A DNA stretch of 64,000 nt from NCBI GenBank assembly GCA_964016885.1, contig OZ024742.1, positions 154,256,001-154,320,000 on the forward strand, given 5' to 3'. Origin of the DNA: Eledone cirrhosa (taxonomy: Eukaryota). Of the stretch, positions 6,230 to 61,627 are shown one piece after another. The notes beneath the pieces are model-generated. The model made no database searches. It had not been told where the DNA came from and saw only the letters and a program-made list of their open reading frames with translations. The stretch's first letter is position 1. Each line of letters starts with the position of its first letter. The position numbers and the translations under genes are program-made.

Positions 6230-9200
6230 TCTTTTTTTGTAACTCGTGATAATGCAACATACATTTGACTATGTGAAAAGAATTGTGTTTGTAGATATGC
6301 ACCTATCTTTTCAAATGTCTGCCCTTGTGCCTTGTTGCATGTAAGGGCAAAGGCTGGTTTGGCAGGAAATTGCTTGCGAGTACGTGTGGTATCCTTGGGA
6401 TTAGCAACCTTGTTCCAGCATTGGGACCCAATGCCACTTCAGCTTCAATTACATGATTATGTAAACTGATGATGATGTAGCGTGTACCATTGCAATGCCC
6501 GTAGAGGATCCATATTTCTCAGAAGCATGATGCAACTGCCTTTCTTCAGTTTAAGTATGTGTGTTGGGAAGCCTGATGGGGTAAGTTTGTTTATGAACTC
6601 AATTGAATATTGCAGTTCATTATCTACTGTGGTGGATTGGCAGTATCGGTAGAGGGTCGGACGCCATGCTTTCCAGCATAGTTACGTCCCTTTAGGGTCT
6701 GAGTTCAAATCCCGCCGAGATTAACTTTGTCTTTCATGCTTACGGGGTTGATAACATAAAGTACCAGTAATGTATTGTGTAATTGATGGCCTTGTGCCAA
6801 AAGTGGAAACAATTATCTAGTGTATCAGAGCTTCTGTAGATTATTTCATTTCCAGGAAACTTGTTGACGATGAACTCATTCACTAATCTTGCTCCATCAT
6901 TTATTGGAGTGATAATGGCTCTATATGCAAGCCATAGTGGGTTTTTGTAGTTTCCTGGAAGATTTGTATACACAAAATCACACAGTCCAGACACATTACC
7001 ATATTCCAGACGAAGTTCATTTGGCAGAAGAATTGTGAATGCACCTGCAGTTGGAACGAACAGTTGGAATGTTACAATTTCCAACATCAAGAAGGTAGTT
7101 TGCAAACTGTCTTTCATCAGAATCCCCTGCATAATTAACCGTTGATTGGTTGTCATCTCCATGGTTTCCACATAGTCCCAGAGATAGGATACTGTGATGG
7201 TTGCCTCAACTATTTGTGGTCTAGCACCATGACGTACAACAGGAAGAATGTGCTTCCAGTCACCAGATAGTAATACTGTTAACCACCAAATGTTTTTTTG
7301 CAATCTCGAACATCTTTAAAGCTCCTGTCAAGGCAGTCAAAGATATGCTTATGTCCCATACCTATGTGATCAATGATTAGCAGGTCAGCTTCCTGCATAA
7401 GTTTACCTGTGTCATCCCTCTTTGTGAAGAAGCAAGTTGATTCAGCAGTCCGATTGAGAGGAATCTTGCACTTGGAATGAAGAGTTCTACCTTGATGAAG
7501 CAGTATGGCAGTGGCAAGTGCAATTCCTTTTTTAGATCGGAGGCAATCCAATAGGATGTTTATGACATAGGTCTTTCCTGTACCGCACTTGCATTCGAGC
7601 AGAACATTCTACATTCATTTTCATTTACAGAGGTGATTTACTTTGTGAAAAATAAACAGTTGCTCAGGATTCAATGTTGGCAGAAGTTCATTTATATTTG
7701 CTTGCAGTTGGTGTGTATTGAAATCAGTTTCTGAGTCCTGTTGATTTCTGGTATGGCAACAATAGTTGGATCTGGCCGAAGAAGTAAATAGTTGGCATGT
7801 ATGTCCAAACCATCATGTTGACGTCTTTGTTGGATCTTCTGTAGAACAATCTGCAAGGTTTGCAAGGGCATGACTTGCTCACGGCATTTATGCATGATAG
7901 CCTCTGCTAGAGAAAGCTTCCATTTCTCCCAGAACTGTAGAGGGTCATTTGGCATGCAGTACAATAAAATGGTGCAGAAGATATTTCGCAGCTGAAGACC
8001 AATCGTAATGGATGAAACCTCTTCCATAGTTTTGTCTTTTTCCCTATCTTCATCTAACAGACCAAGTTTCCTGCATGCTTCTTGGAATGTTGGAAATTCA
8101 ACTACTTCAATTGTCCTCAATTCTTTGTATGAAGTTGACCCAGCCTTGAGATGTAGAATCATTCTGAGGTAATATAATTCAGATTTATGTCTACTGAGAG
8201 ATACTGTTGGAATGCGTCCAAGAGATTGACTCATAAATTGTTGATCACCATCCAAATGCCTCTTTTTTCTTCTTTGCCACTTTTTATTTGTCTAAGTGAA
8301 ATATTTAGGAATATCAATATACAATATGTTTTGTGCCAGTGGATCTCTAATATTCTGTTGAAAATATTCCGTCAACTTAGTCATTAGCTGTCCCCTAGAA
8401 ACAACACTTTCTTCCTGCCTTCGCTCATACACGACCATTTGTTCCCCAGGTAAATGGCAAAGCAACCTTTCAACTGGCGGTTTTCGATGATGTAATGGAA
8501 ATTTATAGATTCTCCAGAATGTTTCACTGGCTGAGATGTACCGTGCATTGATATAGGTCTCAATCTCATTTTGGGCATGGACACAATTTCCTTCATCATT
8601 CTTAATAGTGAAAGTGATCTTGTTTGATCCTTTTGTGATGTACTTATATAAGAATTAACAGACATGACACTGTGGACAACCTCACAATTGATGTGGCACT
8701 GATATCTCAATGAGAGGAAAGTGTTGTATGGAACAACCCAACGATTATCAACAGTAAATTCTTGACCTGTAATTTGGATTATATGGGTGTGACCACCATG
8801 ATGTATACCCCTTCTTCTATACTCTGGAAAGGAATTTTCGGCAAGAAATATGGTTTGTTTGAATGACTTGGTGTATCTTTTTGAGCAATTGCGTTGTTGT
8901 GCTAGCCCTTCCATACATGGGCACATCATGTTAACTAGTCCACATGGGCCATGAATGTTGCAGGATGTGATGATCTTATGTAGAATTGTATTGGTCTCTT
9001 TATCAGGAATCTCACACTACACTACCTGATCAATGGCATCAGCAGTTTTGGGTTTGCTATCTTCAGCCTTTATCAGCAGAATATGTGCATGCGTGAGGCC
9101 TCGTTTCTGCCACTCTTTGTAGCAGAATGAGCCACAACATTTTCTAGGACATTTTCTTTTTAGTATGTCATCCATGAGGCTCTCATACTTGATCTTGAAG

Positions 9201-10623
9201 ACGCTTGCACAAATATCAGGAGGGTCTCTAGGTTCTTCAGCAGGGTGCAAACTATTTTTTTATTTCATCCCAATTAGGGTTAGTAGTTACCGTGATGAAA
9301 TAAGATGGCTTTCCCATGTCTCGAAGCACAGTCATCGAATTCTTAAACCACTCACTGTTGAAGCGAGGTGAACCATAGATTGAAGGAGGAAGAACAATTC
9401 TCCGGCCTGCATTTACTGAATCTCCTTCAGCCGCAGCATCATACATACCCCCATTCTCTTCAGCTCGTATCATGGTTTGATTGTTGTGGGCCCATTTGAT
9501 GCGCCCAATGTTCTATTTTTGCCTGGGCAACTAAAGCATATTGCTGCATCAGCCGCCTAATCTTTATGATAATGTTACAGTCACGTTGCCTAACCTGAAA
9601 CCGATAACTATAGAAATCAATGGGTGTGAGTGTGTGGTTGTTGTCAATCCTTTTCAAACCAACCTGAAACCCATCATTCCCCCAAGGAAACAGTATCACA
9701 TAATGCAGAGAATCATAACAACGTTGAAACTGATGAATCCTCTGAAGAACACCATCTCTTTTATGAATGATGACATCCAAAAGACCTAATGCTGTATCAG
9801 GTTAAATAACAGCAATCTCACATGCCATATGAAGATTATATGTGCGACAAAGAAAATCAGTGGGTTTTACTTTGTCAGCATGTAGGACAATATTCACATT
9901 TTCAGAGACTGGCATTTCAATGCCTGACTTGAAACTTCTTATATACGTGTTGCAGTAGTGCAAGTCTTCTTGCAAGTCCTGCAGGACAGCAGCCTCTAAA
10001 TTACCATAATGCAAGCGATTCTTAAGCTCATGATCTGTATCATAGAAGTAAAGCTGCGCAAACTTGGGTGAAGCATCACTTGGAAGTAGTGATCCAATAA
10101 TATGACATATCTTACCTTGGATCTTAAATGTGAGACTAAATACTGGTGCTTTAATCTCTTTGCAGCCAATTGAAGCTAAAGCAAGCACATTGTTATATGC
10201 CAGTATCTTATGGAGAAAAGAATTTCCTGCTTGACTGATATCGAAATATTTCATTATATTTGGTGGAGGAGGAGGACGTTGAGGGAGTTTCACTTTTACC
10301 TGGAAGAAGCACAGAGATTTGGGTTCATGCGGCCAGCGATAAGCTTTGCAGTGCGGACAAACAGAGGCAAAGAGACTCCCTGCATTATGTTGTGGCATTA
10401 TGGAAAGAACAGTTTGCTCTTGGAAATGTTCATCTGTAGGATTATTTGCCAGACCTACAATTGACATGTTCCTTCCTCTCTGAACGTTTGGTGTATTTGT
10501 TGCAAGATGTTGTTGGTGTGTTAACTGAATTACATTCGTAGAAATGTGTTGGGCTGTTGTAGAGCGATTATTGTTTGATTGGTTTCCCCTTTTCTCTGTT
10601 TGTCGTTGTACATCTGCTACCAT
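6230..10623 (-). pseudogene. Helitron Rep (HUH, Y2) / PIF1 helicase, with frameshifts and stops
   Basis: Rep motifs YFITVTTNPNWDEI, EWQKRGLTHAHILL and YKYITKG. PIF1 motifs GTGKT, GRTLHSKCKIPL, GDWKHILPVV, QFPAKPAFALTCNKAQGQT and YVALSRVT. N-terminal CPHCKA and PKFAQLYFYD. Confidence 0.92.
6631..6811 (+). mobile_element. Full-length tRNA-derived SINE inserted in the Helitron helicase, with 12-bp TSD
   Basis: A box tggcagtatcgg and B box gagttcaaatccc. TSD attatctactgt (6619-6630) / attatctagtgt (6812-6823). It interrupts YRSSDT(V/L)DN-ELQYSIEF. Confidence 0.9.
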
Positions 10624-10862
10624 GCGTTGGGATCTAGATCATAAATGTTTTCTGCCATGTATGTATAAATATATGTTATCTCTACGGTGAAATCTTAGAA
10701 ATAAATATATGTTAAAAGAAAAGAATTCTTTGAAATAAATGTATGTTTGAAATATGTATTATCGTCTGCTATTCGAACACCAGAGAGAGATAGGGAGGGG
10801 GTAGAGAGAGAGTAGTAGGAGGTAGTCATAACAACTGTGGTAGCAGCAAAACGCGTATCAGG

Positions 10863-10899: not shown

Positions 10900-11460
10900 T
10901 TAATATAGATGAGATTCTACAGGACTAGAACTATTTCATTCTTTAGAAATCATCAGGAATCTGGCTTTCCAAGAATAAATGTAGTAGTATTTATATGTTT
11001 TCAGGTGGTAGGAGATGGTGGGGAGTGGGATGGGCGGATGTCATTGGTTGAAATAAAAGGGAATTCATTAAAAGCTAATTCTTTAAAGCTATAATTTATA
11101 TTTAGAGTGAAAAAAGGCAGAAATAATTCTATATACAAGTTCAGAATGTGGTGCCACTCCTATTTTTAAGTTTGTCTTAAGCTAACAATGCCTATATTTC
11201 ACGTGTCTATAAGATGGTTGGGTGTCGGTGATGCTTGATGGATTTAAAGAAAAGGGAAATTCTTTCAAAGCTAATTCTTTAAAGCTCTACTTAGAGTGAC
11301 CAAGGCCAAGATAATTCTATGAACCAGTTCAAAATATCGGGTGCCTATCGTATCATTATTGTCATATTTCTCTTAAGCTATATTCCAGGTGTCAACAGAC
11401 ACAATCACATACACACACCGACACACACACACACTCAATATTTCTCTTAAGCTATATTTC
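10895..11460 (-). mobile_element. HHR-bearing pLTR-like element, same family as 30400-30905
   Basis: Reverse complement of 30400-30905, with an internal duplication (aaagggaattcattaaaagctaattctttaaagct twice). Flanked by (TA)n. Confidence 0.7.
10912..10962 (-). ncRNA. Hammerhead ribozyme (minimal type I)
   Basis: AGAUUC CUGAUGA U-UUC-UAAA-GAA-U GAAA UAG..CUG UA GAAUCU. Confidence 0.7.
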
Positions 11461-11509: not shown

Positions 11510-12228
<719 letters not shown>

Positions 12229-14180: not shown

Positions 14181-14982
14181 CATAATCTATAAAGCTCAGT
14201 GTGGTCATGCTCCTTCGTTATAGAAATCTACGATATAGAATTTCTTCAATTGAAATTTACAATTCAGTATTTGAAATAGTTTAGATTGCGTCTTGACCCA
14301 GATTATTTTTTCAATTTCACCCAGAATTACGCCAAAAATAGATAAAAGTCAATATTTTACGATTTTTCTCTCTCATTTAAACTGCTGAACTCTTTCTACT
14401 ACCACTCAAAATATATACAACTTCATACTTTCTGCAACTTTCTCTTTCCAAGCTTGATGGTGATACTGTCCGTTCACACCACTCCCTACTGTCTTAAATT
14501 TAGGAAACACATATCCTCTATGAGGTTACTAAACCTGCTAGAAACAGCAGCTAACTCTCCCCCATATCACACCACTCCATACTGTCTTAAATTTAGAAAA
14601 CACATATCCTCTATGAGGTCACTAAACCTGCTAGAAACAACAGCTAACTCTCCCTCATATCACAACCCTCCCTACTGTCTTAAATTTAGAAAACACACAG
14701 ACAACCATGCAGAACAACTCCATCGCAGCACTGTGGTTCGGCTGGCATCATCTACGCGTGTGTTGCGCAAGTACTGTGAAACAATAAATGTCAACACTTT
14801 TTTGCACAGAGATAATATCCATAAGCGAAACTACAATTGTCAATGCTGGCGCAGCTTATGCTTCCAGGTCTGCAATTCATTCACCCAGTGCCTGGCAGAC
14901 AAAAAGTGCTGCCATAAAATGGGTGGTGCAACCTAACTTTAGTAACATAATGACCCCGAGCAACGCCGGGCTTTAATGCTAG
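14180..14982 (+). mobile_element. Non-autonomous Helitron in (TA)n
   Basis: 5' A|TC(ataatctataaagctc). 3' hairpin cccgagcaacgccggg then CTAG|T at 14979-14982. Internal ~93-bp tandem repeat at 14475-14698. Confidence 0.8.
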
Positions 14983-15569: not shown

Positions 15570-15612
<43 letters not shown>

Positions 15613-15738
15613 TGAGTGTGTGTGTATGTGTATATATTTATTTATATATATATATATATATGTATATATATGAGCGTATATATCTATATCTATATATATA
15701 TTTATATATATATATACATACATATACATACATACATG

Positions 15739-15870
<132 letters not shown>

Positions 15871-15899
15871 CAAACATATGTATATATATATATATATAT

Positions 15900-16325
15900 A
15901 TTGTTATACTTTGGGAGGGTCATGTTGCCAATAAGAAACACACGCACCAGTTGCTTTCACTTCAATTTATTATATATTTATAAATTTATAAATTTACAAA
16001 TCTCCACACTTATACATTTCTGGTTGGTTGGTTGGTTCCACAACCAGATAGTTGTTTATATATAGTCATAGTCCTTTCGTCACACACTCTGTGACCTCTT
16101 CAGTGACTGTCCTACGCCATTTTGAGAAACAAAATGGCGTAGGATAGAAGAAAGGAAAGGTACAGAAACAAAGAAGGAATCCCCAGTCACTGAAGAGGTC
16201 ACAGAGTGTGTGACGAAAGGACTATGACTATATATAAACAACTATCTGGTTGTGGAACCAACCAACCAACCAGAAATTTATAAGTTTGTAGATTTGTAAA
16301 TTTATAAATTTATAAATATATATAA
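15900..16325. repeat. Head-to-head pLTR palindrome with two outward-facing HHRs (16064-16108 minus, 16185-16229 plus)
   Basis: Arms are reverse complements. HHR: AGUCA CUGAAGA G GUCACA-GAGUG-UGUGAC GAAA GGAC UA UGACU. 15-bp apical hairpin at 16110-16144. Confidence 0.85.
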
Positions 16326-17200
16326 ATTAAAGTAAAAATAGTTAATATATTAATTTCTAAGGTGAATACTACTTAGGTTTATAATATTTAAAGCGGAATT
16401 TTGAAGTTAAAAAGTAGTAGAGTATTAATTATACCATAACTAAATTAAAAATATTAACATGATGGTATCAATTTTAGGAAATGAATTTTGTAATAGGGAA
16501 AGCCAAATCAAGTATTTCATCGGTGGTAGAATATTAATTATAGGTTAACTAAATTAAAAATTATATATTAATTTCTATAGTATATGTTAATTAGGTTTAT
16601 AATAATTAAAGCAAAATTTTGTATTTAATCTATAATAGAATATAATTATAGGTTAACTAAATTAAAATTAATCTATATATTTATTTGTAAAGAATATATT
16701 AATTAGGTATATATTTAAAAGTTTTTCTCAGTTTATGATTACATGATATTCTGCAATCCATCTGTATTAGAATTTTAATTTTAAGCTAACTAAATTAAAA
16801 TTATAGGTTAACTAAATTAAAATTAATTTATAAATTAATCTCTAAATTGTATATTAATTAGGTTTATAATATTAAAAAGTATTTCTCTGTTATTGATTAC
16901 ACGATATTTTGTTATATTTCATCTGTAAAGGAATTTTAATAAAAGGTTAAATAAACTAAAATGAATCTATATATTAATTTCCAAAGTATATATTAATTAT
17001 GTTAATAATATTTAAAAGTTTTTCACAATTTATGATTACACGATATTTTTTAATTTCATCTGTAGTAGAATTTTAATTAAATTAAAATTATAGGTTAACT
17101 ACATTTAAATTAATTTATATATTAATTTCTAAAATATATATTATTAATTAGGTTTATAATATCTAAATGTTTTTCTCAGTTTATGATTACACGATATAAT
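16325..17200. repeat. Degenerate AT-rich minisatellite (~110-150-bp unit), mirrored at 18975-19860
   Basis: Recurring ttataggttaactaaattaaaatt...taattaggtttataat...tttatgattacacgatat. Confidence 0.75.
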
Positions 17201-19850
17201 TAATTCCTGTCGCTTATTTAATAGGATATCCTTAGATTTCATTATTTCAAATATTTATTGGGACAACAATCTACATTCATTTCTATTATTTTGATAAGGG
17301 GTGGCTCTTTTGTATATTTTGTCTGTGGATTATAAACATACAGAGACATTAGCCCTAAATTTTTATATTTACATACACTTTTCGACATGCGTATGCATGT
17401 GAACATACATTTTTATGCATATCTGTGAACGAAGTTACTTACGTATATACACACACCTAACTGTATTTTCTTGATGAATTTTTATGTATTTCATTGGTCT
17501 ATTTAAAATCTGTTCCCAAACAGACCTGTAATTTTGAATTGTTGCTATTATCAATAAATATACTTCATTATTTCTGAAGACAGCATATATATGTGATGGT
17601 ATGTATATTCTCTTTGATAGTTTGTATAATTTTGTACATAGATCTTTTGAATATGCATGCCAATTCCAACACATATATGTCCTAGAAACGATCGTTAAAT
17701 AATGAACTTTTTTTGTTTAATATAAGGAACTGTTTCATTGTTTTATTCATTATTTTTTTTATATTTTATATATATATATATATTTCGCTACTGAATTTGT
17801 TTAGCAAGATTCTTTATCTGAAATCGTGTGTTGAAACCGATATTGTTATACTTTCGGAGGGTCATATTGCCAATAAGAAACACACGCACCAGTTGCTTTC
17901 ACTTCAATTTATTATATATTTATAAATTTATAAATTTACAAATCTACAAACTTATAAATTTCTGGTTGGTTGGTTGGTTCCACAACCAGATAGTTGTTTA
18001 TATATAGTCATAGTCCTTTCGTCACACACTCTGTGACCTCTTCAGTGACTGGGGATTCCTTTCTTTGTTTCTGTGCCTTTCCTTTCTTATATCCTACGCC
18101 ATTTTGTTTCTCAAAATGGCGTAGTACAGTCACTGAAGAGGTCACAGAGTGTGTGACGAAAGGACTATGACTATATATAAACAACTATCTGGTTGTGGAA
18201 CCAACCAACCAACCAGAAATTTATAAGTTTGTAGATTTGTAAATTTATAAATTTATAAATATATAATAAATTGAAGTGAAAGCAACTGGTGCGTGTGTTT
18301 CTTATTGGCAATATGACCCTCCTAAAGTATAACAATATCGGTTTCAACACAAGATTTCAGATAAAGAATCGTGCTAAACAAATTCAGAAGCGAAATATAT
18401 ATATATATATAAAATATAAAAAAAATAATGAATAAAACAATGAAACAGTTCCTTATATTAAACAAAAAAAGTTCATTATTTAACGATCGTTTCTAGGACG
18501 ATGTGTTGGAATTGGCATGCATATTCAAAAGATCTATGTACAAAATTATACAAACTATCAAAGAGAATATACATACCATCACATATATATGCTGTCTTCA
18601 GAAATAATGAAGTATATTTATTGATAATAGCAACAATTCAAAATTACAGGTCTGTTTGGGAACAGATTTTAAATAGACCAATGAAATACATAAAAATTCA
18701 TCAAGAAAATACAGTTAGTTGTGTGTATATATGTAAGTAACTTCGTTCACAGATATGCATAAAAATGTATGTTCACATGCATACGCATGTCGAAAAGTGT
18801 ATGTAAATATAAAAAATTAGGGCTAATGTCTCTGTATGTTTATAATCCACAGACAAAATATACAAAAGAGCCACCCCTTATCAAAATAATAGAAATGAAT
18901 GTAGATTGTGGTCCCAATAAATATTTGAAATAATGAAATCTAAGGATATCCTATTAAATAAGCGACAGGAATTAATTATATCGTGTAATCATAAACTGAG
19001 AAAAACATTTAGATATTATAAACCTAATTAATAATATATATTTTAGAAATTAATATATAAATTAATTTAAATGTAGTTAACCTATAATGTTAATTTAATT
19101 AAAATTCTACTACAGATGAAATTAAAAAATATCGTGTAATCATAAATTGTGAAAAACTTTTAAATATTATTAACATAATTAATATATACTTTGGAAATTA
19201 ATATATAGATTCATTTTAGTTTATTTAACCTTTTATTAAAATTCCTTTACAGATGAAATATAACAAAATATCGTGTAATCAATAACAGAGAAATACTTTT
19301 TAATATTATAAACCTAATTAATATACAATTTAGAGATTAATTTATAAATTAATTTTAATTTAGTTAACCTATAATTTTAATTTAGTTAGCTTAAAATTAA
19401 AATTCTAATACAGATGGATTGCAGAATATCATGTAATCATAAACTGAGAAAAACTTTTAAATATATACCTAATTAATATATTCTTTACAAATAAATATAT
19501 AGATTAATTTTAATTTAGTTAACCTATAATTATATTCTATTATAGATTAAATACAACATTTTGCTTTAATTATTATAAACCTAATTAACATATACTATAG
19601 AAATTAATATATAATTTTTAATTTAGTTAACCTATAATTAATATTCTACTACCGATGAAATACTTGATTTGGCTTTCCCTATTACAAAATTCATTTCCTA
19701 AAATTGATACCATCATGTTAATATTTTTAATTTAGTTATGCTATAATTAATACTCTACTACTTTTTAACTTCAAAATTCCGCTTTAAATATTATAAACCT
19801 AAGTAGTATTCACCTTAGAAATTAATATATTAACTATTTTTACTTTAATT
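16325..19850. repeat. ~3.5-kb palindrome (arms ~1.72 kb) centred on head-to-head HHR elements (18006-18050 minus, 18128-18172 plus)
   Basis: 16325-18051 is the reverse complement of 18127-19850 with only scattered substitutions. The ORF track shows mirrored 79-aa ORFs at 17435-17674 and 18501-18740. Confidence 0.95.
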
Positions 19851-20161
19851 AACCTATAATTAATAGTCTACTTATATTAAAATGTATAATTTAGCCTTCT
19901 TCCTTACAAATACCATTTCCTAATACTGACACTACTATGTAAACACATATTATGATTTAAATGCAGATTAATATTCTATGTTCCTTGAAACCTATATTTA
20001 CTATTTCCCACTAATAATTGTAATCCCACTTCCCCACCCCCATAATCATTCGTATTTGTAAGCGTGGATGTATGTATGTGTATGTAAGTATGTATGTATG
20101 TTTGTGTGTTTGTATGTGAGTATAAAAATACATATGTGCGCATGTAAATAAGTGTGTATGA

Positions 20162-20244
<83 letters not shown>

Positions 20245-20344
20245 TATGTATATATATGTGTATGTATGTATGTGTATGTATATGTATTTTTAGAGATGTG
20301 TGTATGTATGTGTATATATGTGCATAATTGTCTGACTGTGTGTA

Positions 20345-20471
<127 letters not shown>

Positions 20472-20687
20472 ATGTATGTCTGAGTGTGGTTGTGTGTATA
20501 TATATATGGGTATGTGTGTGTATGTATATATACGTATATGTATGTGTCTGTGTGTAGATATATGTGTGTATATATATGTGTGTATATATATATGTATATA
20601 TATATAAATATGTGTGTATGTATGTGTGTATGTGTGTGTACATATATGTATATATGTGTGTTGTGTGTATGTGTATATATATATATG

Positions 20688-20741
<54 letters not shown>

Positions 20742-21259
20742 TGTATTTATATGTATGAGTATATGTTTTACTTGGTTTTATCTATATGCATACAAACAGG
20801 TTAATATGCGTGAGGTTAAGTATGTGTGTGTGTGTGTGTACGTATGTATCGAACGGATAGATGTGTAAATGTGCGTATTTATATAAGCATGTATATTTTA
20901 TGTCTCTCTTTTATGTTTTTTTATGTTTTTATTATATTTCTTTTATTATATTTCTTTTTATTTCTAAAGTTATTGATACATTTTTATAAATATGCTGAGT
21001 CTGACACCCTCCTTTAACTACTTACTCCCTTACCTTCTTTTAATTCTGCATCTAGATGTAAGTGTGTGTGGCCGTGTTTATGTGTGCGCCTCAATATCCA
21101 TATAGTTATAATAATAATATATACGTATGAGTGTGTGTGTGTGTGTATATATGTGTGTGTGTCCGTAGGTATGTGTGTGTTTATGTATATATGCGTGTGT
21201 GTGTGTATGAATGTATGTATATGTGTGTATATATGTGTGTATATATATATGTATATGTA

Positions 21260-21718
21260 TGTATATTTTGTCTGTGGATTATAAACATACAGAGACATTA
21301 GCCCTAAATTTTTATATTTACATACACTTTTTCGACATGCGTATGCATGTGAACATACATTTTTATGCATATCTGTGAACGAAGTTACTTACATATATAC
21401 ACACACCTAACTGTATTTTCTTGATGAATTTTTATGTATTTCATTGGTCTATTTAAAATCTGTTCCCAAACAGACCTGTAATTTTGAATTGTTGTTATTA
21501 TCAATAAATAAACTTCATTATTTCTGAAGACAGCATATATATGTGATGGTATGTATATTCTCTTTGATAGTTTGTATAATTTTGTACATAGATCTTTTGA
21601 ATATGCATGCCAATTCTAACACATATATGTCCTAGAAACGATCGTTAAATAATGAACTTTTTTGTTTAATATAAGGAACTGTTTCATTGTTTTATTCATT
21701 ATTTTTTTAATATTTTAT
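21260..21718 (+). repeat. Third copy of a ~455-bp segment also present in both arms of the large palindrome
   Basis: Near-identical to 17311-17769 (direct) and 18409-18867 (inverted). Confidence 0.9.
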
Positions 21719-21966
21719 CTTGACTCTGTATTCCGTTTATCTTTCACCGAAACTGATTTTTGAATGCATCTCTTCTTTCCATGATATCTGGATTACATTG
21801 AGTTCTTCATTCGGATTGGACACTACCGTAAACTTTTGGTAGAGTTATCTACATATATATATATATATATGTATAAATATATATACATATACATATACAT
21901 ATATATATATACATATACACACACATATATATATATATAAATACATACATACACATATACATACGT

Positions 21967-26314: not shown

Positions 26315-26664
26315 AAAGAATAGAGGTGTAACACACAAGTTATTATATATTGGTAAACGGAATAGAAAATGCTAACAAATTGTTCACAGTTGAAAAATAG
26401 TTTAATTAGGAATAAAAGAGTATTAGTAATTGTATTGTTTAGTATTCAGTTGTGGTTTTAAGTTTTTAAGTTTTTACCGGTTGCGCATTTCTAAATGCTT
26501 TTCAAAAATATTTTTGAGATAGAGTGTCCGTGTTGTTTGCTCTGATCTGATTAGTTTTGGGAATTCTACCTGTTTTTATGCTAAAAAAGTGGCTCCAGGG
26601 CTACTTTGGTGTTGCAAAAATTCTTGTGGTCAAAACAATTTTGAAAAAATGGTGAAAATATTGT

Positions 26665-28150
26665 CTTGAAAAAAACTTAATCTACGAATGTAAAGTTATA
26701 ACTGACACCAATTCCTTTACCTATTTTGGCTCCACTTCCACCTCCTTGAAAGCTCGTCGTTATAATCATCATTCGTATTTTAAATACCAACTTAAAAGAA
26801 CCAACACGGCACTCTCAGAACTCATATGATCCTTGAAAGGCAAAGATATTAACTATAACATCTCTTGGAGGAAGGTTTCTTATGCTTCTCCATACTTGAA
26901 TGGTTCTCTATCCAAGACATGTAATCTCTGTTTATGTGAGAAATTTATCATTATATCTAATTTAGATTGTATAATAAATAGACGCACTGACTTGTTTTCT
27001 TTCTGCGAGCATAAATTCCACAGAATATTCCATAAATTATACGCTAATATATAATACTTTACCATTTTAAAATCCTTTTCTCAAAGGCACATATATATAT
27101 ATACATATATATTTCTTTAAAAATATACCCATCTTTCTACCTTATTTCAATGTTATTTATTATACATTACATAATACTAGTTACTCATTCTATATCACTC
27201 CTAGTTATAACTTCCCTTTCTATCTTTTTTTCCTTTTTTCTTTTTTCTTTTTCTTTTAATTTCTAACCTCTAATCTGTACCTTTGCTTGCTAGATATTGC
27301 TCAATTCTCACTATTAATCACCACAATATATCATTACCCTTTTAATTACTTTATAATATCACCTTGAAAATCCTTCGTAAACATAAACATTTTTTTGACG
27401 TTAGATTATTCATCCTCAATTCATTATTTTTCCTCCTTTTCATGCTCATCTAACTAATACATATTAGACTTATTCAGCCACTCTTCTACTTCTTTTCACA
27501 ATATATCCTTAATTACATTACTATTGTTACATTTTTATATTTTTTTAATAACTGTTATCAACAATTTCTTTTCATCGCACATATTATTAAACCCTTCAAT
27601 ATACAAATCTTAATTTAACATTATTCTAAAATTTTTGTCTTCGTTAATTTTCAAATTCTTTTAATTTATATATTATCTACCAACGGTTTTTTAACCTCTC
27701 TATGTAAAACAATATATTTTTCTCAGTTATAAAAGTTATCTCTCTCTCTCTATCACCCATCTCTCCTCCTATCTCATCCTTCCTTATTATACTCCTCTCC
27801 CTCCATTATTTACTCTCATCTCCTCCTCTTTTTCATACTCCCCCCCCCCTTCAATTTTGTTCCCAATATCACACATCAATCTAAAACTACTTTTCATATG
27901 TTGATTTAAAACTGCACTATTCACAAGTGTTTTTTAACCTTCATATCATGTCTCCCTATTTTATCTGACGAAAACGCAAATGTCATCGCATGATGATATT
28001 TGTTTTTGAAATGCGCATAATAAAATACATGGAACTCTTTTAAACATCTTTTGATCTTATATATTATTCATACTCCAGTCCTACAAACTGTAGAGTTCTA
28101 CTTATCCCATATCTGCATTGCTTTATTGTACTACAATAAAACTCACCCCC
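26665..28150 (+). mobile_element. 5'-truncated Penelope-like element: GIY-YIG relic, 3' region and HHR
   Basis: KNLIYECKV...YFGSTSTSLKARRYNH...TALSELI*SLK...W...CNLCLCEK...INRRTDLFSFCEH at 26670-27054; HHR downstream. Confidence 0.85.
27957..28027 (+). ncRNA. Hammerhead ribozyme, minimal type I with palindromic stem III
   Basis: UAUUUUAU CUGACGA AAACGCAAAUGUCAUC-GCAU-GAUGAUAUUUGUUUUU GAAA UGCGCA UA AUAAAAUA. Confidence 0.88.
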
Positions 28151-28170
28151 TACATATATATATATATATA

Positions 28171-28508
28171 TATACGATATTAATAAATCGAAACTATATT
28201 TATAAAACCATATTTATTTCATTATACATATTTCAGGGATTAAATTAAATTATGGTATGCCTTCATCAGACAAAATACAATATATAACAGTTTTACAAAT
28301 AAGCTTTGACGTACCCTTTTAAAATGCAACCATTGTTTTTGGAAGCCATCCATGTTAAAAGGGTACGTCAAAGCTTATTTGTAAAACTGTTATATATTGT
28401 ATTTTGTCTGATGAAGGCATACCATAATTTAATTTGGTATCCCTGAAATATGTATAATGAAATAAATATGGTTTTATAAATATAGTTTCCATTTATTAGT
28501 ATCGTATA
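28171..28508. repeat. Fold-back palindrome (~156-bp arms, 24-nt spacer) with HHRs at 28215-28277 (minus) and 28400-28464 (plus)
   Basis: Arms are reverse complements. HHR: UAUUUUGU CUGAUGA AGGCAUACCA..UGGUAUCCCU GAAA UAUGUA UA AUGAAAUA. Confidence 0.88.
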
Positions 28509-28912: not shown

Positions 28913-29473
28913 ATAAATCAGGAAAGAAGGTTTACATGGTTTGCTATACAAAAAAGTTTTTAATCACATAGCTTACATTTGTTTCATTGAACTGGTATGT
29001 CTAGAGATTGCTATCCGCTTAATTTTGCGTTACTCGATCGCCAATACAGAATTATAACCAGTCAGATCTTCGGAGCATGCGAGAATGAAGAAAATACACA
29101 GGCAAGAAAAGAAAAGAAAATACAGGCTACTATATGGAGTAGTATGACATTCAATTAGAACAATAACAACAACAATTATTACAACAATGCTATCAATAAA
29201 CTATTTAAGGAGACCCTGACATTACTTAGGTGGGGGTATATAATGTATCTAATGTTACGGCGTGAAAACCAGCTGTCATAAGGCAAAAAGTATCGTAGTG
29301 TGTATCAATTTTAAATTATAAAGATAAGCTGGTTTTTACAGTCTTTCTCTTCATCTTCTACAGTATACATGAGTGGGACCACTGTCAAAGCTCAATAGTT
29401 GTAGAGTTAATACAGAGGTTAACGAATTAATATACGCATATATCTACGCACACACACACACACATATACACAT

Positions 29474-29508
<35 letters not shown>

Positions 29509-29760
29509 AATATATATACACATATATACACATGCATGTGTACATAGACACACACATACACGTCAATATGCACTCGTACAAAAATATACATACATGCAAA
29601 GAGAAAAGCGTGCTAATTGTAATTATGTCAAAATTTTTTGCCATAATTACAATTAGCACGCTTTTCTCTTTGCATGTATGTATATTTTTGTACGAGTGTA
29701 TATTGATGTGTATGTGTGTGTCTATGTACACATTCATGTGTATATATGTGTATATATATT

Positions 29761-29791
<31 letters not shown>

Positions 29792-30349
29792 ATGTGTATA
29801 TGTGTGTGTGTGTGTGTGCGTAGATATATGCGTATATTAATTCGTTAACCTCTGTATTACCTCTACAACTATTGAGCTTTGACAGTGGTCCCACTCATGT
29901 ATACTGTAGAAGATGAAGAGAAAGACTGTAAAAACTAGCTTATCTTTATAATTCAAAATTGATACACACTACGATACTTTTTGCCTTATGACAGCTGGTT
30001 TTCACGCCGTAACATTAGATACATTATATACCCCCCACCTAAGTAATGTCAGGGTCTCCTTAAATAGTTTATTGATAGCATTGTTGTAATTGTTGTTATT
30101 GTTCTAATTGAATGCCATACTACTCCATATAGTAGCCTGTATTTTCTTTTCTTGTCTTGCCTGTGTATTTTCTTCATTCTCGCATGCTCCGAAGATCTGA
30201 CTGGTTATAATTCTGTATTGGCGATCGAGTAACGTAAAATTAAGCGGATAGCGATCTCTAGACATACCAGTTCAGTGAAACAAATGTAAGCTATGTGATT
30301 AAACACTTTTTTGTATAGCAAACCATGTAAACCTTCTTTCCTGATTTAT
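28913..30349. repeat. ~1.44-kb essentially spacer-less palindrome with U4C HHR-like motifs (28965-29081 minus, 30181-30297 plus)
   Basis: Apex ...aattatgtcaaaa-tt-ttttgccataatt at 29634-29635. Motif: GCU CCGAAGA U-CUGACUGGU...ACCAGUUCAG-U GAAA CAAAUG UA AGC. Confidence 0.9.
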
Positions 30350-30399
30350 ATCTATATATATATATATATATACATTTGTGTGTGTATGTATGAGAATGT

Positions 30400-30960
30400 G
30401 TCTGTTGACACCTGGGATATAGCTTAAAAGAAATATGACAATAATGATATGATAGGCACCGAATATTTTGAACTGGCTTAAGAATTTTCCTGGCCTTTGT
30501 CACTCTAAGTAGAGCTTTAAAGAATTAGCTTTTAAAGAATTTCCCTTTTCTTTAAATCCATCAACCATTACCGACCACCAACCATCTTATAGACACCTGA
30601 AATATAGGCATTGTTAGCTGAAGACAAACTTAAAAATAAGGAGTGGCATCTCATTCTGAAATTGTTTATAGAATTCTTTCTGCTTCTGTCACTCTAAATA
30701 TAAATTATAGCCTTAAAGAATTAGCTTTTAATGAATTCCCTTTTCTTTCAACCAATGACCTCCACCCATCCCACTCCCCACCCTCTCCTACGACCTGAAA
30801 ATATATAAATACCACAACATTTACTTTTGGAAAGCCAGATTCCTGATGATTTCTAAAGTATGAAATAGTTCTAGTCCAGTAGAATCTCATCTATATTAAA
30901 ACTATTATACTCTGCTATGTATTGAGTACATTAGTTACTGTGTTAACCTACGATTCAACC
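30400..30960 (+). mobile_element. HHR-bearing pLTR-like element (HHR 30837-30887)
   Basis: Homologue of 10895-11460. AGAUUC CUGAUGA...GAAA...UA GAAUCU. Confidence 0.7.
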
Positions 30961-34671: not shown

Positions 34672-36009
34672 GTAATAATAATAAATTTGAAGACTAAAAT
34701 CCAAAGAGGGCTGGATAAGGATAAATATATATCAAATATATAAGAACCGTAGAGCAAATATTTATTAAAATAACAGATTAGAGATTAAGCAGAGAATCGC
34801 TGCTTTCACCCTTAACGGGATCTTCTGAAACTAACAAGGTCAATCTGTGAACGCAGGAGAGAATACTTCAAAAAACGTTCCTCGGAATGGATAAGGTAGC
34901 ATATACAGAGTACGAGAATAGACCTTGAAGAAATAGATTCCGACACATTATATGGTATAACCCATCATATAATATGGAGGTGGCCACACCATTACCTAAT
35001 CTCTTTCTCTCCATTATTATGAAGCATTTCCCCCTACACATAAATATAGTAACATTTTTAATAGAAATACTATTAAAATTTCTCACTCTACGACTCCTAA
35101 CCTTGCACATAACATCACAGCTTCACATTTAGCTAAACTACCTAGCCGTGGGAATACGTGCAACCATGTAGTTAGTACTAACTGTAATTGTAGGAATAGG
35201 GTTGACTGCCCCCTATCCGGGAAATGTCTCTCTAGTAACATTGTCTACAAATGTAAGGTTGAAACACCCACGTCCCGTAGGGCCTACATAGAGTTTACCG
35301 TCAATAGATTCAAGTAGCGTATTTTCATGCATACACATTCTTTTCGTTAGGCTTTAAGAAGTAATATGACGTCACTTTCAGCTTATATCTGGAGTCTAAA
35401 AGACAACCACACCCAATATATGTTACACTGGGAGATCCTAGCTAGGGCTAGATCGTATAACGAAATAAAAGACCTTGTGACCTCTGCGCCGCTGAGGCCC
35501 TGGAAATACTCTACGACAAAGTCCACATCTTAAACAAAAAATCTTAGGCAAGTTCGGCTTGTAAACGTAAATTGCACAAAACTTTCCTGTATTACAGCCC
35601 CACATTATAGCCTAACGGATAGTACGACCTATACGCGGATATTTTACGTCTTGATGTGGTAGCTAGGTATATGTTATGTTTATACCATTACTTATTTGTA
35701 TAGGTAAGTATATATTACCTGTATATTTTCTGAAGGTACGTATAATTTCTCGTATGTATATTTGCTTGTATATGTTATGGTGTATATATTATATATTCTG
35801 GTACATATGCTTTTGGTTATGTGTGTACGTGAGTTCTGCGTTTGTGTGAGCATGCGAGGTCGTACGTATGTAGGGGTGTGTAAATGTGTAATTTGTGTTT
35901 TGGTTGACGTATGTCTCCGAATATATGTGTATTTACATGTAGGTATGTGTGTGCGCTTGTTATATGCGTATTTATTTATTTATATACGTTTATTTAATTA
36001 TATGTATAT

Positions 36010-41669: not shown

Positions 41670-43450
41670 ACATGCCTTTAAGTCTTTACGCCGGGATCAT
41701 CTTCTCCAGGCCTGCCTCAGCCGAGGCCCCTCTGATACCCGCTGGCCAACCTGTCATGTGTAGCCCCGAGCATGCTCCTAGCTGCTGATACGATCATACC
41801 CTCGACCCTTTGGGACCCCTCCTGTTCGTCCTTAGTATTGACCACATCGCCCGGAGTATCACGGCCCCTCTCAACGTTTGGTATCTGGATGATGATACGT
41901 CGGGCGGGCCCGTACGGACGGTCAGCCAAGACCTTCAATCGGTGATTCTGCCCTGGCGGGAATCGACCTCCAGGTCAACTCGGCCAAGTAGGAGGTGGTG
42001 AACGTCAACCTCGGTAGTGCGAGCTTTGCAGCCTCAGTCTTGGACGCGCGGTCCTTTCTCCGCCAGGTTCAGTTGACCCCAAAGAGGATGTCCTCATCCT
42101 CGGGTCACCGATCCACCCGCCGGCCATCCGCTCCATCATTAGGTCCAGGCTTCAAAAGATCCAGACTCTCACGAGCCGACTGGGCTTGATTGACGGCCAC
42201 CCATCTCTCTTTCTGCTGAGGAACTGCTTCGCCATGCCGAATCTCCTCTATACACTCCGCAGCGCTCCATGCTACACACAGCCATCTCTCCTCGCTGACC
42301 TCGATACTTGTATCCGAACAGCAGCCGAGGGGATATGCAACATCAAGTTTGACGACATAGTGTGGCAACAGGCCACTTTACCGGTCAGGTATGGCGGCCT
42401 AGGCTTCCGGTCCCCGATCTCACTAGCTTTGCCGGCGTATCTTTCGTCGGTAACCTCGTGCCTCCTCTTCGTCAGCAGGGTTCTTCAAAAAACAACAGAA
42501 CCCTCTGTGTTCAGAGAACGTGAGGCCGCCTGTGAAACGTGGGACCGGCTGGGACTTAGCCCAGTAGACGTCCCTCCTCCTTCTTCCCCTGTTGACGTCA
42601 AGTCCCCCAAACGCACTTGCGATGCCATCCAGTGCAGCTTGGCCTCAGGCAGGCTCACGCGTCAGCTCGAGCAGCACCGCCTTGCTTGTTTTCGTCCGGC
42701 CTCCAAACCCCACAGTGGTGCATGGCTCCATGTTCTGCCCTCCTTCTCCACTGGCACGCAGCTAGACAAGCATAACCTGCGAATCGGCGTTTCTCTGAGG
42801 CTCGGCCTCCGGATCTGCCAGCCACACCAATGTCGCGGCGGTTCCACCGTGGACTCATTCGGCTTCCACGCGCTTTCCTGTCGCCACAGTGCCGGCCGCA
42901 TTCCACGCCATACTGCCCTCAACGAGGTCATTAAGCATAGCTTGGACGCTGCATGCTTCCCTTCCCAGCTCGAGCCGGTGGGGCTGGATCGAGGGGACGG
43001 CAAAAGGCCAGATGGCATGACCATCTTCCCGTTCCGCGGTGGCAAACCCCTCGTCTGGGATGCCACTTGCACCGACACTTTCTGCAGCCGCAACCTGGTG
43101 CAGTCTGCGACTGATCCAGGTTCTGCTGCACGTCGGGCTGAGGGTGCCAAACCCCTCAAATACCGGTCGCTCTCCGACAGGTTTGCGGTCGTTCCCCTGG
43201 CAGTGGAAACTTCTGGTGTCCTCGGCTCCAGGGCTACCTCCTTACTCACCACCATAGGCGCTGAGCTGGCCAGCCGCAGGTGTGAGCCCCGCGAGTTGGA
43301 GTGGCTTTTCCAGCGCGTCTCCATTGCCGTCTTCCGTGGAAACGCCTTCTCCATTCTGTCCGCCGGGGCTGTGAGTGGGCACCCATCGCGTACCAATACA
43401 TTAGTTAAATACCATTCTTTCATCGTTATATAGTAGTTATAGTATTTAAC
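41670..43450 (+). mobile_element. CRE-like non-LTR retrotransposon (RT + Zn knuckle + restriction-like endonuclease), 5'-truncated
   Basis: RT motifs AFKSLRRD, DPLGPLLF and WYLDD. Also GGLG, GAWL, C..G.HALSC, RH..LN, DGKRPDG, WDAT and KY...PLAVETSG in the 415-aa ORF. Confidence 0.88.
42186..43433 (+). pseudogene. C-terminal RT thumb / RLE open frame of the CRE-like element
   Basis: 415 uninterrupted codons with the PD..D RLE motif. The upstream RT core is frameshifted and deleted. Confidence 0.85.
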
Positions 43451-48871: not shown

Positions 48872-50334
48872 ATAATAATAAATTTGAAAACTAAAATCCA
48901 AAGAGGGCTCGATAAGGATAAATATATATCAAATATATAAGAACCTATTCCTTCTTTTCTCTATCAAGGACGAATTCCCCAACGCGGGTGGTGGTTTGTA
49001 CCGTGACGATAGTCTTTTTACCATGACTAAGTGCGGACCTCGTGCTTGCGACAGGTTCAGAAAAGAACTCACAGCCTTCTTTAAAGGATTCAACCTCTCT
49101 ATACAGGTTGAGGCCAATCTCTCGGTCGTTAATTACCTCGACGTTACTCTCAATTTATTAAATGGGTTGTATTACCCTTATAGAAAGCCGAATGATACGC
49201 TTAATTACGTAAGTAAGCATTCCAACAATCCTGCCAGCATAACCAAGAACCTGGTAAGAAACGTTTCGTTGAGGCTTTCCCGTCTTTCCACCAACGAGCG
49301 TATTTTCAACGACCATTCCACTTATTACAATGAAGCTCTTCTCGAAGTGGATTTGTCGATAAGGTAGCATACACAGAGTACGAAAATAGACATAGAAGAA
49401 ATAGATCTCGTCGCATTGTTTGGTATAACCCACCATATAATATGGAGGTGGCCACACCATTAGCTAATATCTTTCTTTCCCTTATTACGAAGCATTTTCC
49501 ACCTACACATAAAATAGTAAAATTGTTAATAGAAATACTATTAATTTCTTACTCTACATCTCCTAACCTTGCACATAACATCACAGCTTCAAATTTAGCT
49601 AAACTACCTAGCCGTAGGAACACGTGCAACTCTGTAGTTAGTACTAACTGTAATTGTAGGAATCGGGTTGATTGCCCCCTATCTGGGAAATGCCTTCTTA
49701 GTAACCTTGTCTACAAATGTAAGGTTGTAACACCCACGTCCCGTAGGGCCTACATAGGGTTAACCGCCAATAGATTCAAGCAGCGTCTTTACATGAACAC
49801 CCATCCTTTTGCTTACCCTCTAAGAAGGAATATGACGTCACTTTCAGCTTATATCTGGAGTCTAAAAGACAACCACACCCAATATAAGTTACACTGGTAG
49901 ACCCTAGCTAGGGCTAGATCGTATAACGGAAATAAAAGACCATGTGACCTCTGCGCCGCTGAGGGCCTGGAAATACTCTACGCCACAGACCAAGTCTTAA
50001 ACAAAAAATCTGAGGCAATTTCGGCTTGCAAACATAAATTTCACAAAACTTTCCTGTATTACAGCCCCACGTTATACCCTAACGGATAGTACGATCTATA
50101 CGTGAGATATGTTACGTCTTGATGTGGGAGCTAAGTATATGTTTTGTTTATACCATTACTTATTTGCATAGCGAACGTTCCACGAACCAAAGTTTCGTCT
50201 TCCTGTCTTCCTCCGGTTGTAACGTTTTTTGAAATATCCATTACTGCGTTTACATATTGACTTTGTTAGTTTCAGAAGATCCCGTTAAGGGTGAAAGCAG
50301 CGATTATTTGCTTAAACTTTAATCTGTTATTTTA

Positions 50335-51639: not shown

Positions 51640-51839
51640 NNNNNNNNNNNNNNNNNNNNNNNNNNNNNNNNNNNNNNNNNNNNNNNNNNNNNNNNNNNNN
51701 NNNNNNNNNNNNNNNNNNNNNNNNNNNNNNNNNNNNNNNNNNNNNNNNNNNNNNNNNNNNNNNNNNNNNNNNNNNNNNNNNNNNNNNNNNNNNNNNNNNN
51801 NNNNNNNNNNNNNNNNNNNNNNNNNNNNNNNNNNNNNNN
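51640..51839. other. Assembly gap (200 N)
   Basis: Run of n. Confidence 1.
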
Positions 51840-55009: not shown

Positions 55010-55290
55010 GGTTGACTTTGCCTTTCATCCTTACGGGGTCGATAAAATAAAGTACCAGTAATGCACTGGGTAATTGCTGGCCTTGTGCCAAAAGTAGAAA
55101 CAATTATTTCTACTTTCGTTGGCACAAGGCCAGCAATTATCCCAGTGCATTAGTGGTACTTTACTTTATAGACCCCTTAAGGATGAAAGGCAAATTTAAC
55201 CTTTTCAGGATTTGAACTCAGACCATAAAGGGCCGTAACACTTTGCTGTAAAGCATGGCGTCTGACCCTCTACTGATACTGCCAATCAAT
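55010..55290. mobile_element. Two SINEs joined tail-to-tail
   Basis: Plus copy 55010-55106 ends agtagaaacaatta; the minus copy starts immediately at tttctacttt. Confidence 0.85.
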
Positions 55291-56137: not shown

Positions 56138-56214
<77 letters not shown>

Positions 56215-56219
<5 letters not shown>

Positions 56220-56269
56220 ACATACATACATATATATATATACAGACGTACAGCAGTATGTATATACAT

Positions 56270-56303
<34 letters not shown>

Positions 56304-56983
56304 GTAGGTATTGGTTTGCCGAACATTTATTATAATGTTCGGTTTGCTTGTAAACAAACAACCCGAATTAAGCCGTACAGTGTTCGGCAACCATCGTTGA
56401 CATGTTGTTCAACACTGACAAAGGAACGATGAACTAGTTTCGAGCTTCTTAGCTGTCATCAGCGCCGTTAACCTTCCTGTCAGATGATTGAACGTTTGAA
56501 ATTAAATACTTTCCTCATGCATATTAACGGCTGGGCAGTCTAATTTGCATATCGAGTGAGTTAGTCGGTCGGGGGCACCGAAAACGATAAATGGAAAAAA
56601 TGATATTGAAATTTCATTTCTCACTCTTCGTACGGCTGATACTTAAATGTAATATGTATACGTACATACATGTATGTATACGGTGTGATGACAGCTAAGA
56701 AGCTCGAAACTAGTTCATCGTTCCTTTGTCAGTGTTGAACAAAGTGGCAACGATGGTTGCCGAACACAGTGCGGCTTAATTCGGGGTGTTTGTTTACAAA
56801 CAAACCGAACATTATAATAAATGTTCGGTAAACCCATACGTACATATGTGTATATATGTTCATGTATGTATATATATACATACTGCTGTACGTCCGTATA
56901 GATATATGTACGTACGTATACATACTTACGTTTAAGTATCACCCGTAATAAGAATGAGAAATGAAATTTCAATTTCATTTTTT

Positions 56984-56990
<7 letters not shown>
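56215..56990. repeat. Nested inverted repeats of an HHR element (HHR 56425-56469 minus; C3-less copy 56680-56722 plus)
   Basis: 56237-56468 versus 56680-56900, and 56590-56675 versus 56905-56987. HHR: AACGGCG CUGAUGA C-AGCU-AAGA-AGCU-C GAAA CUAG UU CAUCGUU. Confidence 0.8.
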
Positions 56991-57030
<40 letters not shown>

Positions 57031-61000: not shown

Positions 61001-61625
61001 TACTCTGAATTATTATTTCGTATTAGTTTACTTTTTTGCACTGGGTGGTTGCTGGCCTTGTGCCTGGGTAGAAACCTTTATTTATTATTTTGTGGTAGTT
61101 TCTTTAGTATTATGGCCCCTCACTTGTTGACTCGTCACCGTAAGTTATAATCGGTTTATTACTTATACCTCTTAAAAGGGTCTCATTATAATTCCGTCCC
61201 ACCTAGTATATTTTTTTTAGCCTAGCAGTACCAGTGAGAGACTTAGGTCGTAGTAACCAGAAATTGTTTTTTTTTTTTTTATATTTAATTGCCTTTTAAC
61301 ACTCAGTATTTTTCTATATATTTACCCCTTATTTTCTACTTACTGTTTCGCCTTTCTCCCCCTCTCCCTCACTAGTATCTTCTTTGACCTCATGCCCACC
61401 TGTAGGCGGCACTATCAACGCATGAATGGGTCTCCTCCACCCCCTATCCCTCTTTCTGTCTCAACAACAAACTTTTGACCAATCCCTGTGACAATCACTT
61501 TGACCATATATGGAATTACCCCTTGAGAAGCTCGGCTATTCAAATACCAGGATAAAAATGTTCATTTAGTCCAGAATTAGCCGTCGAAACGGCTTGAGCT
61601 CAGCCGTGGGGGGTCCTACTCGTTC

Positions 61626-61627
<2 letters not shown>
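58061..61627. mobile_element. Head-to-head Naiad-type PLE palindrome (arms 58141-59707 and 60103-61627; 395-bp spacer is upstream ORF)
   Basis: Mirrored GIY-YIG ORFs (YIGLTACDFKTRLY...CNLCSEE...NKK.EL...CKH). Spacer reads FNPPHN...KLSYSTTPN...CNCPDGSICPFDNRC on the minus strand. Confidence 0.93.
58154..58249 (-). ncRNA. Hammerhead ribozyme, U3-A8 variant, GUC site (mirror copy 61518-61614 has GUG)
   Basis: ACCCC UUGAGAA GCUCGGCUA...UAGCCGUC GAAA CGGCU-UGAGCUC-AGCCG UC GGGGU. Confidence 0.8.

Follow-up and report, generated by a model that had tools for sequence, protein, structure and literature searches.

A nested palindrome of two Penelope-like elements with a mirrored flank in the genome of Eledone cirrhosa

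Layout of the locus

The 64,000-nt stretch of the Eledone cirrhosa genome analysed here (the window; G000:C3:154256001-154320000, in an assembly of 3.0 Gb) is AT-rich and dense in dinucleotide microsatellites. Between positions 15900 and 19850, it carries a nested palindrome in which a small inverted insertion of a Penelope-like element (PLE) and the DNA next to it are repeated in mirror image. We have termed the family of this insertion X (a Neptune-like Penelope element) and that of the neighbouring DNA Y (a Hydra-like Penelope element). The whole stretch 15900-21850 derives from PLEs: an insertion of X and one of Y meet there in one (AT)n tract. It appears likely that the small palindromic X insertion triggered a single, later mirror-image duplication, for which two template switches suffice.

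The layout was derived from a self-BLAST with simple repeats masked and from a base-by-base comparison of the arms, using the assembly sequence only. It bears out the order x'-c'-x / y'-x'-c-x-y proposed in the initial annotation, where x is a pseudo-long terminal repeat (pLTR), c an asymmetric apex and y the flank, as well as the claim that some 1.45 kb of neighbouring DNA were duplicated. The inverted pairs are 16313-18051 / 19862-18127 (98.85% identity), 15914-16337 / 18322-17897 (97.4%) and 15955-16109 / 16337-16184 (96.1%). Compared base by base, 16326-18051 and 18127-19849 show 13 substitutions and one 3-bp indel in 1,726 bp (0.75%), a count that omits four mismatches beyond the end of the junction. 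Right of the first apex, the annotated x is present but only ~140 of its 209 bp long, and y is not unique or ordinary flank, as had been assumed, but the 3' end of a second PLE, that of family Y. The parts are as follows, from left to right.

15575..15899, no strand: (AT)n-rich microsatellite, the left target of the X insertion (from the sequence)
15900..16108, minus: x1', a full 209-bp X pLTR arm with no tail; hammerhead core at 16103, minus strand
16109..16184, plus: apex c1, a head-to-head join of two 5'-truncated arms, with the native purine tract on the right arm only
about 16107-16147: hairpin at apex c1
16185..16325, plus: x1, the first ~140 bp of the pLTR, hammerhead core at 16190, ended by junction 2
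16322..16337, no strand: junction 2, a microhomology join of x to the inverted family Y 3' untranslated region (UTR) (from the assembly sequence)
16326..17783, minus: y', the left part of the Y insertion, duplicated in inverted orientation
17784..18050, minus: e' + x2', inverted 58-bp tail and pLTR; hammerhead core at 18045, minus strand
18051..18127, plus: apex c2, the reverse complement of c1 and the centre of the 3.5-kb palindrome
18128..18336, plus: x2, pLTR with a minimal type I hammerhead motif (core at 18133); putative site of junction 1
18337..18394, plus: e, the 58-bp family X tail, normally on one arm only
18411..18864, minus: short inverted arm of the Y insertion, a copy of 21261-21716
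18858..19028, plus: last 57 codons of the family Y GIY-YIG endonuclease, 89% identical to a long copy (tblastn)
18979..21716, plus: family Y 3' region, with AT-rich diverged repeats, microsatellites and the terminal 456 bp
21717..21850, plus: 134-bp family Y tail, followed by (AT)n

The inverted duplicate y' contains 3' UTR repeats, the endonuclease C-terminus, the short inverted arm and (AT)n; the family Y 3' region (18979..21716) is duplicated only as far as 19849.

Two Penelope-like families and their head-to-head insertions

That x is a hammerhead-bearing pLTR, as initially annotated, is supported by a motif scan and by longer relatives that lead into a PLE open reading frame (ORF). Judged by motifs after PMC8557442, and not by a tree, the element is Neptune-like, with Nematis a possible alternative for X. 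Upstream of x, long relatives pass into an ORF encoding YSRYVDD, a CX4CXXC linker and a GIY-YIG domain that has residues of the CCHH type; ORF pieces of 378 and 175 aa lie in genome loci L065 and L051, while the window itself has no X ORF. The linker reads CIDKKCITC, and two Cys stand between the GIY and YIG equivalents, with His residues downstream. The CX2-5CXXC linker and the CCHH-type endonuclease residues given for Neptune in PMC8557442 are thus both found in family X. Pfam, which is nearly insensitive to these PLE proteins, returned for X a weak RVT_1 match (E = 0.008, under the family cut-off); Atlas look-alikes score 0.92-0.96, some of their clusters having GIY-YIG or RVT_1 on 13-21% of members.

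The hammerhead of x is predicted from its motif: a minimal type I arrangement at the start of x, in the order CUGAAGA, stem II, GAAA, a 4-nt loop replacing stem III, UA and stem I. The feature contains it four times and an older copy once; it had no match in 50 shuffled windows. Across the 30 loci L109-L138, the scan gave 32 matches, nearly all of this motif. Rfam yielded no match at the gathering threshold in the window and, at E up to 10, chance-level unrelated families for 18040-18400. Minimal hammerheads without helix III have been described for PLEs (PMC6155905). Family X is abundant: three exact X motifs occur at 6,923, 5,798 and 5,189 places in the genome, and a search of the genome with x'-c-x gave 1,762 candidates, many of the 40 scored being themselves palindromic. 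The older copy in the window, at 11790-12112 (76-90% identical), has a short tailed arm inverted with respect to a full pLTR that carries a hammerhead motif at 11949.

The rejection of y as unique flank rests on its genome-wide candidates (2,585 for the 454-bp part beside the tail) and on the PLE ORF in long copies, to which y is 95-98% identical over most of its length and 91% in the microsatellite-rich middle; y encodes the endonuclease C-terminus of these copies (the last 57 codons) and includes their 3' region. A terminal inverted repeat of a DNA transposon was likewise rejected for the 454-bp part, given its variable arm length, single tail and PLE ORF. The Hydra-like label again comes from motifs rather than from a tree. 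The 834-aa ORF in locus L105 has DKT, an RWK-like motif (RVRWR), a CxCX5C linker and a C-terminal endonuclease with no CCHH, the second cysteine between GIY and YIG being missing. DKT, the RWK-like motif, the linker and the (TA)n target are shared with Hydra-type PLEs (PMC8557442). Canonical hammerheads are reported for the latter, while none was found in four Y copies: a core scan of these loci gave three hammerhead core-like strings, none assigned to the terminal part of Y itself. Pfam had no match for the 834-aa ORF; Atlas look-alikes score 0.96-0.98. Long ORFs of family Y (L105:3944-6445, minus strand, 834 aa; L095:2573-4975, 801 aa) and of an X-related family (L100:6884-10000) suggest recent activity.

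A PLE insertion is described as having a tail on one end and, at its 5' end, an inverted copy that is 5'-truncated (PMC8557442; PMC2377424); such insertions often take complex tandem or inverted forms, and how the inverted structures are built is still open (PMC8557442). A purified PLE protein cleaves AT-rich DNA at ATT on both strands and, in vitro, cuts and extends both strands; reverse transcription starts at two sites bounding the tail, and cutting in the element's own pLTR has been proposed (PMC11167929). Our sample of X arms, all on C1, consists of the first 100 sites, in genome order, that match an x motif exactly (104 entries, less four overlapping-locus duplicates). The 58-bp tail is present on 47 of these arms and lacking on 53. 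Because all 20 X head-to-head pairs found within 5 kb consist of one tailed and one untailed arm, x'-c-x is an ordinary head-to-head PLE insertion unit, and the central unit at this locus, with two tails, departs from the one-tail rule. The inverted 5'-truncated partner, the tail on one end, the (TA)n target (borne out at the window ends and at the other inspected loci), the minimal hammerhead in the pLTR and, in long relatives, a reverse transcriptase followed by a C-terminal GIY-YIG domain are all as described for PLE insertion units (PMC8557442; PMC2377424; PMC11167929). The tails of 58 bp (X) and 134 bp (Y) differ from the 30-40 bp described there, and a mirrored tail with 1.45 kb beyond it falls outside ordinary PLE insertion. 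The Y insertion shares the anatomy of X and lies directly against the X tail, within one and the same (AT)n tract; such an X-Y adjacency recurs independently at locus L069, with an X copy 89% identical.

The two apices (16109-16184 and 18051-18127), annotated as mutual reverse complements, indeed agree at 73 of 77 columns, each copy having two private changes. The predicted folding energy of the apex hairpin is -29.4 kcal/mol (z = -11.7), none of 200 shuffles being equally stable. The native sequence upstream of x contains the purine tract and, of the hairpin, only the right half, the left half being different. The hairpin is therefore not native to the element but the join of two arms, truncated at nearly the same point, that abut head to head. 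A symmetric form, with a purine tract on either side, is common (L003, L005, L007, L009, L011, L012); at this locus, one arm is without the 40-nt tract. The exact apex join occurs at three places in 3.0 Gb, the two others in more diverged subfamilies. At both of these, the shortened arm is the tailed arm, as in the second unit here; in other short palindromes, the shorter arm occurs with and without a tail. The idea that palindrome apices across the genome coincide with this hairpin fails, 29 of the 30 arms with the right half continuing into native upstream sequence, and the native sequence and the arm-end survey together reject the hairpin as a native structure or a general apex. Loss of the purine tract by splicing was also rejected (no GT-AG on either strand).

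The 5' ends of the arms are clustered. Ten of the 100 (11 with one apparent internal deletion) fall in the interval 60-75 nt upstream of x, compared with 13 ends in the 122 nt around it (for 11, Poisson P = 1.5e-5; the interval was picked post hoc). The clustered ends sit 5-18 nt before the motif CAAAATGGCG, which resembles motifs of the YY1 type. Because Penelope has an internal promoter (PMC2377424), it is a fair inference that transcription starts at this cluster; possibly, the cluster before CAAAATGGCG marks an internal promoter of the pLTR, the short transcripts of which give the 0.5-kb palindromes. Alternatively, a CA-rich run may favour stalling there. Arm stops at the 5' edge of the hammerhead were considered and set aside as a weak pattern seen post hoc (4 of 100 ends at positions 2-8).

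Origin of the mirrored flank

A search with the whole centre gave an end-to-end match only at this locus among the 40 scored of 2,903 candidates. Short palindromes with two tails are rare: with a gapped pattern, tails on both arms were found at 7 loci, compared with 523 loci of that size class (31-bp), which includes some sister-family loci; a smaller size class added 2 more two-tailed loci, and the two-tailed count excludes longer centres. A contiguous mirrored flank occurs at none of the 8 other two-tailed palindromes, one of which (L229/L250) has an offset inverted flank match of 198-235 bp beside a tandem array that we scored as not mirrored, and at none of 15 size-matched loci, where one offset match of 123 bp (81%) was seen. 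Because these loci have no mirrored flank, the mirrored 1.45 kb is an event separate from the insertion. We found no literature on PLE palindromes that seed flank duplication, in a search to which subscription journals were mostly closed; a preprint on tandem retrozymes (bioRxiv 10.64898/2026.07.22.740005) has no bearing on the question.

The arms also carry information on timing. Six changes are common to both arms and absent or rare among 13-32 family alignments; nine further shared changes lie where only 3-4 family copies align, and three of the shared changes are in the 454-bp arm, absent from the Y insertion's own partner arm. The 13 differences between the arms polarise as five derived on the left, six on the right, one on both and one unpolarised. 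Since some derived changes are common to both arms and others private to one of them, the duplication probably came after the insertions, with a lag, and was followed by further drift. Transversions make up 14 of the 19 post-duplication changes against 14 of 26 in the local background (P = 0.22), so that an excess indicative of sequencing error was rejected. Three A-to-C changes within 12 bp at 16004-16015, private to x1' against 53-61 family alignments, are possibly one clustered mutation event.

The microhomology annotated at the 16325 junction (junction 2) is present in the assembly: 4 bp match exactly within a 13-mer that matches at 11 positions. A match of 11/13 or better is found for 89 of 301,056 random x/y' position pairs, or ~0.4% allowing 13 shifts, and the microhomology is thus above chance.

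The events that we propose start from the anatomy, the family identities, the rarity, the shared and private changes and the microhomology; their starting allele, switch order and host pathway are conjectural. X would have entered the (AT)n tract as two 5'-truncated arms joined head to head, a mechanism suggested by the literature, with one arm beginning at pLTR position 209 and the other at the tail end, and the join forming the hairpin. The state before duplication would then have been L x' c' x e Y. During leftward copying through Y, e and x, a strand may have moved by homology from x onto x', the inverted counterpart, and continued backwards through the apex, x, e and ~1.45 kb of Y, before returning to the original template at x position ~140 via microhomology. 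The predicted product, L x' c' x(1-140) / y' e' x' c x e Y, has the observed order, with the apex inverted once; template switching at a fork, with a later deletion at one junction, would give the identical sequence. Because two template switches give the whole layout, no rolling-hairpin cycle is needed. Of the repeated template switching or hairpin priming that the initial annotation proposed within a ribozyme element, template switching is probably the cause, while iteration and a rolling hairpin find no support.

The components are of known kinds, namely PLE inverted insertions and local duplication mediated by inverted repeats. In rearrangements of the duplication-triplication/inversion-duplication (DUP-TRP/INV-DUP) type, homology in inverted repeats is followed by a microhomology of 1-9 bp in 14 of 24 samples (PMC11293582), and origin-dependent inverted-repeat amplification (ODIRA) with a secondary deletion would leave the same pattern (PMC10766186). 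Variants of both types share with our locus one microhomology junction, a local inverted middle segment and, if our reconstruction holds, one inverted-repeat junction. They differ in size (tens of kb to Mb, versus ~1.9 kb here) and in their inverted repeats, which here are 209-bp pLTR arms lying 77 bp apart. Compared with the triplicated core of DUP-TRP/INV-DUP, any such core here would span at most 140 bp (pLTR positions 1-140), with no parental allele for comparison.

Several observations weigh against this reconstruction. Junction 1 is required by the layout but, as a homologous switch, would leave no scar, and its position is not fixed by any diagnostic base; x2 lacks the three changes at pLTR positions 95-106 that are private to x1'. 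The allele before duplication is one that we infer. The two other loci with the same join show the orientation of the second unit, while under the two-switch model the first unit has to be the original; the opposite order, with the second unit original, needs three switches. Junction 2, which is known from the assembly alone, falls at an ATT motif in the pLTR, the cut preferred in vitro by a PLE endonuclease. The arm divergence of 0.75% could be allelic, from two haplotypes.

The ATT motif fits an enzymatic origin, to which we give a small share of the probability: the Penelope enzyme would have introduced a nick in its own pLTR, at the ATT near position 140, and copied back from inside Y, on read-through RNA or on the opposite DNA strand, through tail, pLTR and apex, with homology joining the product. 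PLEs would then make local inverted duplications directly, by copying their neighbours through a fold-back apex. Cleavage of both strands at ATT and the proposed cutting of the own pLTR (PMC11167929) speak for it, as do the frequency of complex tandem and inverted PLE insertions (PMC8557442) and the eight loci at which two-tailed centres formed without any copying of the flank. However, the copy begins inside the Y 3' UTR, at neither of the start sites at the family ends, and passes the apex into the second arm, so that an RNA template must span the hairpin. Furthermore, the shared derived changes date the event well after the insertions, and the eight two-tailed and 15 size-matched loci offer no second example. 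Were it correct, the thousands of pLTR palindromes in the genome would be active seeds of mirror duplications. The locus would be of wider importance if such duplications proved to be tied to PLE cut sites genome-wide.

Slightly less probable again is an artefact of assembly or library, either a fold-back chimera or two haplotypes joined through the palindrome. The genome is dense in palindromes and microsatellites, and two alleles would likewise diverge by 0.75%, with derived changes on each arm. No piece among the contigs listed for four public runs spans the apex join. On 16085-16280, the depth of these contigs goes from at most ~200 to more than 30,000 at 16120-16127 (three runs), with loose ends that carry native upstream sequence at the apex; bins left of the join have a depth of 3-11 in two of the four runs, which is no proof of the join. 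Among 23 runs of public reads, none had half of the query words, three runs of one sample reaching 0.45-0.46. A fold-back of a single molecule would, however, give identical arms or mainly indels, and not 13 substitutions to one indel, evenly split between the arms, with private changes in each apex copy and no significant transversion excess over the local background. A mis-join of haplotypes would not produce a new microhomology junction, and the whole structure is just 4 kb. The annotation, too, took the scattered differences between the arms to argue against a pure read artefact without excluding it.

Rolling-hairpin-like replication with hairpin transfer, iterated to yield flip and flop apices, is very improbable. 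Parvovirus-type rolling-hairpin termini show flip/flop orientations, and the locus has in common with them a very stable, asymmetric hairpin in both orientations; unlike them, it is chromosomal, with two copies of a non-native hairpin and no sign of repeated hairpin transfer. The two apex copies are explained by one inversion: both orientations occur because a palindrome with an asymmetric loop was inverted once, and iterated copying is not called for. The native element is without the hairpin, the exact join occurs at just three places in the genome, and a native terminal hairpin retained across copies, which this kind of replication entails, is not seen. Besides the PLE enzyme, no nicking protein was found nearby, and a literature search joining flip-flop, rolling hairpin and retrotransposon found nothing.

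As remote is a course in which recombination between x and x' first flipped the apex and the duplication then combined a flipped with an unflipped copy, from the sister or the homologue, part of the arm divergence being allelic: the orientation of the second unit, equal to that of two other same-join loci, and the private changes in both apices agree with it, but it takes one event more than the best model, and the orientation is no requirement, as the shorter arm is seen with and without the tail elsewhere.

With two template switches as the favoured course, the locus is a clean, small case in which a palindrome made by a transposon has probably seeded a secondary duplication in inverted orientation, both processes being known. 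PLE-rich genomes hold very many such ready-made palindromes (the 523 loci of one size class, for instance), and most PLE palindromes leave their flanks unrearranged.

Other features of the window

The window is rich in PLE debris. A 324-bp palindrome (91%) at 28178-28501 has CTGATGA...GAAA hammerhead-like cores on both strands; because a very similar string occurs in locus L107, near another Hydra-like ORF, it is probably the pLTR of a third PLE family. Judging from its ORFs, 58141-61627 is another head-to-head PLE insertion, with inverted arms of ~1.58 kb (89%) that each carry a Hydra-like GIY-YIG C-terminus (59346-59870, minus strand; 60045-60461, plus strand). Fragments related to the Y protein (30-47% identity) lie at 26662-27030, 34947-35604, 48945-50068 and 63346-63990. 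Further inverted repeats or palindromes, at 88-97%, are found at 28925-30337, 55010-55201, 56213-56991 and 10910-11406 versus 30394-30889.

In addition, the minus strand of 6740-10638 has broken ORFs, with a PIF1 helicase match (E = 2e-12) at 6743-7315, and resembles a decayed Helitron. A 471-aa GC-rich ORF at 42018-43433 (plus strand), with no Pfam match, resembles the C-terminal portion of a non-LTR retrotransposon that carries a restriction-like nuclease. There is a scaffold gap of 200 N at 51640-51839, and a 93-bp tandem repeat of ~2.4 copies lies upstream of the nested palindrome, at 14474-14697.

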